In this document: positions 51,349 through 57,395 of the stretch, one piece after another
How positions within the stretch are numbered: the stretch's first letter is position 1
How the letters are laid out: each line of letters begins with the position of its first letter
Sequence record: PV730302.1
From: a phage
Strand: one strand, 5' to 3'
Length of the DNA: 64,000 nt
Made by a program: the position numbers and the translations under genes
Notes under the pieces: model-generated
The model's database searches: none
What the model saw: only the letters and a program-made list of their open reading frames with translations
What the model was told of the DNA's origin: nothing

Positions 51349-51378
51349 CAAAAAGCCCCAACCTTTCGGAAGGGGCTA
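51349..51378 (-). terminator. rho-independent terminator downstream of the tRNA/sRNA region
   Basis: AGCCCCTTCC-GAAA-GGTTGGGGCT followed by T5 on the minus strand. Confidence 0.55.
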
Positions 51379-51420
51379 TGCCTTGCGGCAACCTTGTCGG
51401 GGTTCCACCTGCTAGGCAAG

Positions 51421-51757
51421 TGTTTGTACGAAACGCCGGGATTCGAACCCGGTTATTAAGTAGTTGACGCTACTCAATATTTTTAAAAGGCCATATCTCG
51501 ACCATATCCGAACGTTCCGTCAAAAACGCTACTCGGCTTACGGCAAAGATATTTCCTCGAATCGATAATTCGGTGCGCCGTTTCTGCTGTGATGTAAGGG
51601 GACGTTAACAGATCGTAAAGATTTGTTAATGTCAGTCCTTATTCAGGGAACATCAGTCCGACGACTTACCGGTAGCGACCCGGTTTCTTGTTTGGTGCGC
51701 CGGTGAATGCTGGTAATCAGTCTTCATACGACGGCTTGACTATATAATAGTCTTCAT
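51421..51757 (-). ncRNA. putative small stable RNA region (tRNA-like 3' element; possible species-1/species-2-type RNAs)
   Basis: ORF-free 340 bp next to the tRNAs; perfect T-arm CCGGG-TTCGAAT-CCCGG at 51436-51452 without a foldable canonical cloverleaf; CGGCGCACC repeated about 115 nt apart; 6-bp hairpin GACTAT-TAT-ATAGTC just 3' of tRNA-Arg. Confidence 0.3.
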
Positions 51758-51758
51758 T

Positions 51759-51833
51759 TGGTATCCCGCCCTGGGATCGAACCAGGACCGCAAACTTAGA
51801 AGGATCGTATGCTATCCATTACACCAGCGGGAC
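51759..51833 (-). tRNA. tRNA-Arg (anticodon TCT), CCA encoded
   Basis: Manual cloverleaf: acceptor GTCCCGC/GCGGGAT, D-arm GTGT-AATGGATA-GCAT, anticodon loop CTTCTAA, T-arm CCTGG-TTCGATC-CCAGG. Confidence 0.8.
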
Positions 51834-51838
51834 ATAGT

Positions 51839-51915
51839 TGGTGACCCGGACCAGATTTGAACTGGTAACCTTTCCCTTATGAGGGGACTGCTTCTAACCA
51901 TTGAGCTACAGGGCC
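51839..51915 (-). tRNA. tRNA with anticodon CAT (Ile2/Met type), CCA encoded
   Basis: Manual cloverleaf: acceptor GGCCCTG/CCGGGTC (one mismatch), anticodon loop CTCATAA, T-arm ACCAG-TTCAAAT-CTGGT; three stem mismatches in total. Confidence 0.65.
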
Positions 51916-51920
51916 TTAAT

Positions 51921-52187
51921 TTAAATTACAAATCCAGCAGGAGCATTATCATCTTTAGCCATGTGCTGAATTGTATGATAAGTCATTTCTTCAGGAGCAA
52001 CCAGATAAGCCGCAACGTTAACTAGTGGAATTATTTTTGGTTTAGCGAACGTGCTATCAGAAATTGCCATAAAGGGCTCGCCGTCTCGTTCAACTTCGCC
52101 AAATTGGCATTCATATGAAATAGAACAACGTTTGGTAGTTGTTGTCTTGGTTTTAGGGTCATAAAAAGCTAATTTTAATACTAACAT
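51921..52187 (-). CDS. hypothetical protein (88 aa)
   Basis: ORF ending 6 nt before the tRNA 5' end. Confidence 0.45.
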   Translation of the reverse strand: MLVLKLAFYDPKTKTTTTKRCSISYECQFGEVERDGEPFMAISDSTFAKPKIIPLVNVAAYLVAPEEMTYHTIQHMAKDDNAPAGFVI

Positions 52188-52315
52188 AACACCTCAAATA
52201 AAATTAAGTAAAGTAAGTTTAATTAATAGACCTTGTCTATTATGAAAGGTTCTTTGAGGGAAGAACCTTTGGTAATAGAGGGTATTAATGATAGAGTAAT
52301 AATATCACATAATTC

Positions 52316-52600
52316 TTAAAGCATATTAATGTAATCAAGTTTAATAGAAGCAATCTTCAAAGGATTTTTAAAGATGTCGTATTCGACCAATCCGTTTTCA
52401 GTTGCGGTATAAAAAGTAAAGTTAACAGAATTATAACGTTGGCTGTTAACTTTGAGTTTAACGTCGCTTGAACTACGGCCAATATTAACCTGTTGGACAT
52501 CAAGCACGGCATCTTTGCCAAAGTTGCGAATCAGTAGCTCTGCTGCAACCTGGTCTGAATTATATCCATTCTCTGGATTAGTAACCTTAACGTATAGCAT
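52316..52600 (-). CDS. hypothetical protein (94 aa)
   Basis: ORF. Confidence 0.45.
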   Translation of the reverse strand: MLYVKVTNPENGYNSDQVAAELLIRNFGKDAVLDVQQVNIGRSSSDVKLKVNSQRYNSVNFTFYTATENGLVEYDIFKNPLKIASIKLDYINML

Positions 52601-57387: not shown

Positions 57388-57395
57388 TATTTATA
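57388..57395 (-). promoter_or_regulatory. late promoter TATAAATA for gene 4
   Basis: Exact TATAAATA on the minus strand 27 nt upstream of the gene 4 ATG. Confidence 0.65.

Follow-up and report, generated by a model that had tools for sequence, protein, structure and literature searches.

Beside its gene for the arginine transfer RNA (tRNA), bacteriophage T4 carries the genes of two small stable RNAs, rnaC (species 1 RNA) and rnaD (species 2 RNA). T4 species 1 RNA is processed by ribonuclease P (RNase P), whose substrates other than tRNAs are in some cases released as stable small RNAs, e.g., the E. coli 4.5S RNA precursor and the C4 RNA of phages P1 and P7. The two T4 products, RNAC and RNAD, have been seen as late RNAs by RNA sequencing and confirmed by Northern blot (PMC9697503). 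Here we analyse the corresponding locus in a stretch of phage DNA of 64,000 nucleotides (nt) (record PV730302.1; hereafter the window), in which a sequence-only reading had marked positions 51421 to 51915 as a reduced tRNA cluster accompanied by a tRNA-like remnant or a small stable RNA region.

The locus belongs to a T4-like phage of the genus Dhakavirus, in which it forms the 3′ end of the tRNA operon. The 701 bases around it are 99.6% identical to Escherichia phage 04086, a member of this genus, and they match 767 phage records, nearly all of them from T-even-type phages of Enterobacterales. The T4 record is matched at 93.3% identity and bears the annotation 'rnaC | rnaD' beneath the match, as do the records of phages RB5, RB6 and RB27. 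The proposed likeness to the T4 arrangement, with two small stable RNAs beside tRNA-Arg, is borne out by base-for-base alignment with T4 tRNA-Arg, rnaD and rnaC (NC_000866). The wording 'tRNA-like remnant' has to be abandoned for the 340 bp beside tRNA-Arg, since the T-arm element lies in rnaC, an intact RNA under strong constraint, and not in a decayed tRNA. The left boundary proposed for the cluster, 51421, lies 6 nt beyond the 3′ end of rnaC (51427), and the 66 nt beside tRNA-Arg, which contain a hairpin and one copy of the motif CGGCGCACC, had been overlooked as an extra element without a T4 counterpart. A single minus-strand transcript would carry, in this order, tRNA-Ile(CAU), tRNA-Arg(UCU), the 66-nt rnaD-like mini element, rnaD, rnaC, a conserved trailer and a terminator. 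We hold this identity and architecture of the operon to be almost certain. Its parts are as follows:

51839 to 51915, minus strand: tRNA with anticodon CAU and an encoded CCA, orthologue of T4 tRNA-Ile (ARAGORN; Rfam RF00005, 51.8 bits).
51759 to 51833, minus strand: tRNA-Arg(UCU) with an encoded CCA (ARAGORN; Rfam, 48.8 bits; 100% identity to T4 tRNA-Arg).
51693 to 51758, minus strand: lineage-specific element of 66 nt, probably a miniature rnaD paralogue (absent from T4 and T6; fold; motifs common to rnaD).
51572 to 51691, minus strand: orthologue of rnaD (T4 species 2 RNA), about 120 nt (alignment to T4 rnaD, 85% identity; folds and covariation).
51566 to 51571, minus strand: spacer GAAUUA separating rnaD and rnaC, AAAUUA in T4 (alignment).
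51427 to 51565, minus strand: orthologue of rnaC (T4 species 1 RNA), 139 nt (138/139 identity to T4 rnaC; RNAalifold; pair counts).
51377 to 51426, minus strand: conserved 3′ trailer with the hairpins CACUUGC[CUA]GCAGGUG (51422 to 51406) and GCC[GCAA]GGC (invariant alignment block; fold).
51350 to 51376, minus strand: intrinsic terminator with the stem GCCCCUUCC-GAAA-GGUUGGGGC followed by UUUUU (fold; sequence reading; conserved in T4 and T6).

The rnaC copy of the window (51565 to 51427) matches T4 rnaC (139 nt; NC_000866 70908-71046) over its full length without material difference, and lies on the same strand in the same place, after tRNA-Arg and rnaD and before the same trailer and terminator; it is the unannotated Dhakavirus orthologue of the T4 gene. 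rnaC is 99% identical between T4 and the window, whereas rnaD and the other flanks differ by 9-15%. The perfect T-arm picked out by the sequence-only reading, GGGTTCGAATCCC at 51438 to 51450 (minus strand), is the sole match in the window even at one mismatch (expected 0.05) and proves to be the T arm of rnaC (51452 to 51436). As that reading had also found, it cannot be completed into a cloverleaf with D, anticodon and T arms: neither ARAGORN nor Rfam at gathering thresholds makes such a call, and both resolve the two tRNAs only.

The window copy of rnaC has a minimum free energy of -50.2 kcal/mol (z=-4.2). Homologues were gathered from an annotated phage collection (members of Winklervirus, Moonvirus, Karamvirus, Kanagawavirus and Gelderlandvirus, and Klebsiella phages) and by motif scans of IMG/VR; looser patterns returned mostly chance matches among viruses, and the only real additions that they made were three loci (L041, L043 and L061). 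For 19 distinct sequences, RNAalifold predicts a four-way junction of 46 pairs, 21 of which show compensatory changes. Pairs were then counted in 24 distinct homologues from several genera of Tevenvirinae (seven are named in the fetched records): standard pairs are formed in 96.6% of cells, and both partners change in 27 of the 51 pairs. The observed values were not attained in any of 500 shuffles, and only 38-47% of cells are paired when the partners are slid. The prediction of a four-way junction made of an acceptor-like stem, a T arm and two arms with complementary loops is thus well supported.

The terminal, acceptor-like stem comprises 7 base pairs (bp), in which the 5′ end UCGAUUCG pairs with the 3′ end CGUUUCGU; one pair switches between A-U and G-C (11:13 sequences), and two U-U mismatches are invariant. 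Directly stacked on it is the T stem of 5 bp, with a pair alternating between G-C and U-A (13:11) and a loop that usually reads UUCGAAU. Arm 1 is long and irregular (about 25 bp), its sequence being almost wholly replaced in some lineages, and arm 2 has 10 bp. These features recall tRNAs and the tRNA-like domains of transfer-messenger RNA (tmRNA) and of plant viruses, with which rnaC shares a 7-bp stem on a 5-bp stem, the UUCGAAU loop, a position within tRNA arrays and, in some lineages, an N-CCA end. It differs from a canonical tRNA by having neither D nor anticodon arm in its covariation-supported fold, by the two U-U mismatches in the acceptor-like stem and, for T4-type copies, by the lack of CCA. 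The copies of two Klebsiella phages, kv_tblp2 (L069 121-262) and Biddle_MM4 (L070 121-258), encode U-CCA right after the terminal stem, where T4-type copies have U-ACA, and this makes them more tRNA-like than the latter.

The apical loops of the two arms, UUGACG in arm 1 (51523 to 51518) and CGUCAA in arm 2 (51469 to 51464), are perfectly complementary over all 6 nt. Both are invariant though the pairs that close them change, and both are kept in members of Moonvirus, Kanagawavirus and Gelderlandvirus despite a very different arm 1. One of the six putative loop-loop pairs is A-U in 22 sequences and G-C in two, namely the copies of kv_tblp2 and Biddle_MM4, whose loops read UUGGCG and CGCCAA. 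Fully paired 'kissing' complexes between loops of 6-7 nt are known from other systems, e.g., HIV TAR-TAR* and ColE1 RNA I/RNA II. rnaC likewise possesses two fully complementary 6-nt loops with one compensatory change; in contrast to these examples, both of its loops lie in one molecule, on arms of unequal length. The signal that the two loops pair with each other is real but thin.

Searches for known RNA classes agree with the absence of a tRNA. The best permissive Rfam match within rnaC is tRNA-Sec, at 17 bits and E=1.6 for a gathering score of 47. ARAGORN found no tmRNA, and Rfam gave no tmRNA match even at E up to 10. At gathering score, no Rfam 15 family matches 51427-51758, the two tRNAs alone passing, and rnaC and rnaD therefore appear to be without an Rfam family. 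When 185,579 species genomes of bacteria and archaea were scanned for rnaC homologues with an exact pattern, 12 matches were returned, all of them due to chance, the other motifs being absent. An alternative rnaC pairing, ACGGAACG with CGUUUCGU, was rejected: its G-U becomes A-C in other genera, and the pairing is lost in two loci (L007 and L020). The same pairing underlies both the tRNA-Sec match and the 96-nt 'tRNA-Phe(gaa)' called by ARAGORN inside the rnaC homologue of Enterobacter phage Entb_43 (L006 1547-1642), which is a false positive.

Immediately 5′ of rnaC, as in T4, lies rnaD (51691 to 51572), which aligns with T4 rnaD (119 nt; NC_000866 71053-71171) over 121 columns. It has the same 5′ hairpin (51684 to 51668), a basal helix in which GUCGUCG (51665 to 51659) faces CGGCGC (51580 to 51575), the CCCUG bulge (51648 to 51644), the 3′ CGGCGCACC and a variable distal hairpin, in which most of the differences from T4 are found. 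The tail reads ACCG, against ACCA in T4. A further difference concerns the 5′ flank: rnaD begins 1 nt after the CCA of tRNA-Arg in T4, whereas in the window the 66-nt element intervenes. The resulting junction, ACCA-AACA-AGAAACC, is that of phage dhaeg, where a tRNA precedes rnaD.

A single plan was recognized in 11 rnaD sequence types, from T4, T2, dhaeg, Karamvirus, Jiaodavirus, Moonvirus, two IMG/VR lineages and a Vequintavirinae phage. It consists of a 5′ hairpin, AA, a basal helix G-Y-CGUCG / CGGCG-C, an internal loop, a helix of 4-6 bp abutting an invariant CCCUG bulge, and a distal hairpin. Compensatory changes occur in the 5′ hairpin (A-U, G-C and G-U; C-G to U-A in Escherichia phage A7_1), in the closing pair of the basal helix (G-C to A-U in Klebsiella phage ATCCa) and in the helix beside the bulge (U-A 10, A-U 6). 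The bulge is predicted to be unpaired in all lineages. The distal hairpin is unrelated in sequence between lineages, the centre of the molecule cannot be aligned across them, and in Karamvirus and Jiaodavirus the 3′ tail does not resemble that of a tRNA.

The 66-nt mini element (51758 to 51693) starts where tRNA-Arg ends. Its first hairpin, GACUAU/AUAGUC (51752 to 51738), begins 7 nt after tRNA-Arg and is the 6-bp hairpin that had been noted near this gene; it is followed by AA, a helix G(C)CGUCG / CGGCGC and ACCA. The repeated motif of the sequence-only reading was also recovered: CGGCGCACC has two minus-strand occurrences in the window, 51572-51580 and 51694-51702, and no other (expected 0.12). 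The first of them forms the 3′ side of the basal helix of rnaD, and the second stands in the mini element, whose closing helix is as in rnaD and from which the CCCUG bulge is missing. The element is predicted to fold with -16.4 kcal/mol (z=-2.8). Alignment shows it to be absent from T4 and T6, and only 27 phage records contain it, each with 97% identity or more; those with fetched taxonomy are Dhakavirus. Because of the motifs and architecture shared with rnaD, we regard it as a probable partial duplicate (paralogue) of rnaD, of uncertain function. On the other side, its ACCA reads AACA in 25 of the 27 carrier records, and by alignment score alone its homology to rnaD is weak: the score is marginal, 28 of 1000 shuffles scoring as high, so that the alignment was rejected as significant.

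In other arrays of Tevenvirinae, rnaC and rnaD occupy 'tRNA slots', directly after the CCA of an upstream tRNA. rnaC lies between tRNA-Trp and tRNA-Gly, inside the tRNA array, in members of Karamvirus, Moonvirus and Gelderlandvirus, and between tRNA-Ile and tRNA-Trp in a Winklervirus; wherever an RNA gene lies upstream in the sequence, the CCA end of that gene plus 4-6 A/U-rich nt comes before rnaC. rnaD follows tRNA-Asn in Karamvirus and Jiaodavirus. Within Dhakavirus, rnaC and its spacer (about 146 nt, window 51566-51425) are precisely absent from phages MX01, dhaeg and C6 (L008, L009 and L010) with the flanks intact, and dhaeg and C6 also have a different tRNA-Arg and an extra tRNA-Asn. This clean absence, together with the altered tRNA content, indicates that the operon evolves by gain and loss of cassettes. 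Outside the subfamily, Escherichia phage A7_1 (L027 1493-1592, Vequintavirinae) carries a compact rnaD homologue of about 100 nt directly after tRNA-CAU, a version present in six records only. Its occurrence in another subfamily suggests horizontal movement of the tRNA-plus-rnaD module.

Several records of such arrays call for comment. In Salmonella phage KM16 (NC_070779; L005 387-2399), tiny coding sequences for 'hypothetical proteins' are annotated where ARAGORN finds 13 tRNA genes and where homologues of rnaD and rnaC lie; the RefSeq annotation of this region is clearly erroneous. The arrays of Jiaodavirus (L036 780-906 and 983-1143) and Karamvirus (L006 852-979 and 1139-1244) contain further unannotated gaps of 100-250 nt between tRNAs, which could hold additional small structured RNAs. 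Record PV654520.1, named 'Pseudomonas phage vB_PSGBLB0006' (142 kb; host given as P. aeruginosa), agrees with T-even coliphages at about 95% identity over the locus, and its host label or its assembly looks doubtful.

Downstream of rnaC, the 50-nt trailer (AACACUUGCCUAGCAGGUGGAACCCCGACAAGGUU...) is invariant in T4 and four Dhakaviruses, and is thus more conserved than rnaD. It stands 3′ of rnaC in the window and in T4, and directly 3′ of rnaD in the Dhakaviruses without rnaC; a processing site and a further small RNA are possibilities for its role. The terminator that follows escaped a simple scan because its stem has an internal mismatch. On the upstream side, no match to the late-promoter consensus TATAAATA was found on the minus strand within 5 kb upstream of the tRNA cluster, and a scan for sigma-70 promoters near the cluster gave no score above chance; these observations refer to window 51916-52320 and 57388-57395. 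An open reading frame (ORF) of 88 amino acids (51921-52187; PHROG 14864, unknown function) stops 5 nt before the first tRNA.

By ARAGORN and Rfam alike, the 64 kb contain two tRNA genes and no more, both encoded on the minus strand, far fewer than the eight of T4. They are the Arg-TCT and CAT-anticodon tRNAs already recognized by hand, and their encoded CCA ends and the 5 nt between them were confirmed. The CAU tRNA matches the CAU tRNA of T6 at 75 of 77 positions and differs from the annotated tRNA-Ile of T4 by only two substitutions; the isoleucine identity previously suggested for it therefore stands by orthology, and it would read AUA as isoleucine, as T4 tRNA-Ile does after modification of C34. 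Its acceptor stem starts with GGCCC, as in E. coli tRNA-Ile2. In the long ORFs of the window, AGA makes up 11.5% of the Arg codons and AUA 10.6% of the Ile codons, more than in E. coli. The pair would thus supply decoding of AUA and AGA, and codon use fits the usual explanation for keeping both tRNAs.

The anatomy of the operon suggests how the two RNAs could be released. Host RNase P would cut at the 5′ end of rnaC and thereby free the 3′ end of rnaD, after which exonucleases would trim the 3′ ends. The known RNase P substrates 4.5S RNA precursor and C4 RNA may offer a parallel, with the long hairpin and NCCA-like 3′ tail of rnaD, or the tRNA-like minihelix of rnaC, embedded in a longer precursor; they have no sequence or Rfam relationship to rnaC or rnaD. 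We consider it probable that the tRNA-maturation machinery of the host releases rnaC and rnaD, and the joint proposition of identity, architecture and maturation by this machinery seems to us highly likely.

Once released, the RNAs would act in trans as structured, protein-binding mimics or decoys of tRNA, without an adaptor role in translation. A partner, most likely a protein whose usual ligand is tRNA, would recognize them by their invariant single-stranded and tertiary elements. We put this forward tentatively, as a possibility. A narrower version, which we judge somewhat unlikely as it stands, makes rnaC a dedicated tRNA mimic, with an acceptor/T-arm minihelix set on a body locked by the loop-loop kiss, that together with the CCCUG bulge of rnaD would bind or divert a host factor recognizing tRNAs, such as a defence nuclease that attacks tRNAs or an enzyme of processing or modification.

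Several points weigh against a function of this kind. Papers of 2010, 2022 and 2025 still describe what RNAC and RNAD do as unknown (PMC3014915, PMC9697503, PMC12685909). The T-loop is not conserved in some lineages (UGCAUGC in L013 and L025, GUGCAUC in Winklervirus members), which weakens a strict tRNA-mimic reading of rnaC, and T4-type rnaC ends in ...GUA-CAAA, with no CCA. The loop-loop covariation amounts to one evolutionary event. Moreover, with arms of such unequal length (about 25 versus 10 bp), an intramolecular kiss needs a sharp bend, and the pairing could be intermolecular.

Alternatively, rnaC and rnaD could act in cis only, as processing punctuation and protective 3′ structure of the tRNA operon transcript, and have no role once excised; we would give this a minor share of the probability. 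It fits several features: the RNAs are always found in tRNA operons, immediately behind CCA ends; the end of rnaC resembles a tRNA and would recruit RNase P; the conserved trailer and terminator come next; and the operon persists where rnaC has been lost as a cassette. However, it leaves unexplained why twelve loop nucleotides and the CCCUG bulge are invariant amid freely changing stems, and why T4 accumulates the released RNAs in stable form (PMC9697503). It is also at odds with the position of rnaC in the middle of Karamvirus and Moonvirus arrays, where neighbouring tRNAs already provide RNase P sites.

The conservation of the bulge, invariant and predicted unpaired in every lineage, would also be expected if rnaD, and possibly rnaC, were a base-pairing regulatory RNA, the C-rich UUCCCUG targeting purine-rich ribosome-binding sites of host or phage mRNAs. 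RNAC and RNAD are termed 'small regulatory RNAs' in a recent paper, evidence being absent (PMC9697503), and adaptation of the T4-like phage BW1 to host ECOR34 was accompanied by a convergent single-nucleotide polymorphism in rnaD (PMC12685909). The complement of the bulge, TCAGGGAAC, is nevertheless not enriched in the window (11 matches versus 10.8 expected), and the seed would measure only 5-7 nt. By blastn against 5,426 complete E. coli genomes, the RNAs have no counterpart or similarity to any sequence, and no small-RNA family of Rfam matches them; there is no Hfq-type 3′ end, rnaC and the trailer separating the terminator from rnaD. We therefore find such regulation rather doubtful.

Two further explanations deny that the region encodes functional RNAs of its own. 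Decayed tRNA genes, i.e., pseudogenes or remnants, would account for a perfect T arm without a cloverleaf, for the weak tRNA-Sec-like match, for the 'tRNA-Phe' within the Entb_43 homologue and for the small number of tRNAs at the locus. This is contradicted by the covariation of rnaC, whose non-tRNA arms are kept through many compensatory changes across several genera, and is very improbable: the near-identity of rnaC between T4 and the Dhakavirus window exceeds that of rnaD and the other flanks, the pairing on which the tRNA finders rely is the one that decays to A-C and is lost in two loci, and the T4 RNAs are stable and detectable (PMC9697503). That small proteins are encoded here, as the 'hypothetical proteins' annotated beneath the match in many GenBank records would have it, is hardly credible: mechanical ORFs of 27-40 amino acids do exist, mostly on the plus strand, so that the region is 'ORF-free', as first described, in the useful sense that no ORF is conserved between lineages, but the Entb_43 rnaC has none of at least 25 amino acids and that of Melville a different one, the substitutions are base-pair-compensatory and not codon-patterned, and the curated T4 record has misc_RNA here.

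The locus is thus a known feature of T4 in an unannotated relative, with a minor lineage-specific addition, and only the comparative structure of rnaC and rnaD goes beyond the descriptions found in the literature. These RNAs belong to the longest-known non-coding RNAs of phages, and their genes are mostly unannotated or mis-annotated as hypothetical proteins across hundreds of phage genomes; the comparative fold would permit proper annotation models. It also gives testable handles, namely the minihelix with its conserved tandem U-U mismatches, the complementary loops, the CCCUG bulge of rnaD and the gain and loss of cassettes. If the two RNAs did act as tRNA mimics, these 50-year-old orphans would be host-range or anti-defence determinants of T-even phages, and the convergent rnaD mutation that arose on adaptation of a T4-like phage to a new E. 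coli host (PMC12685909) would illustrate this.

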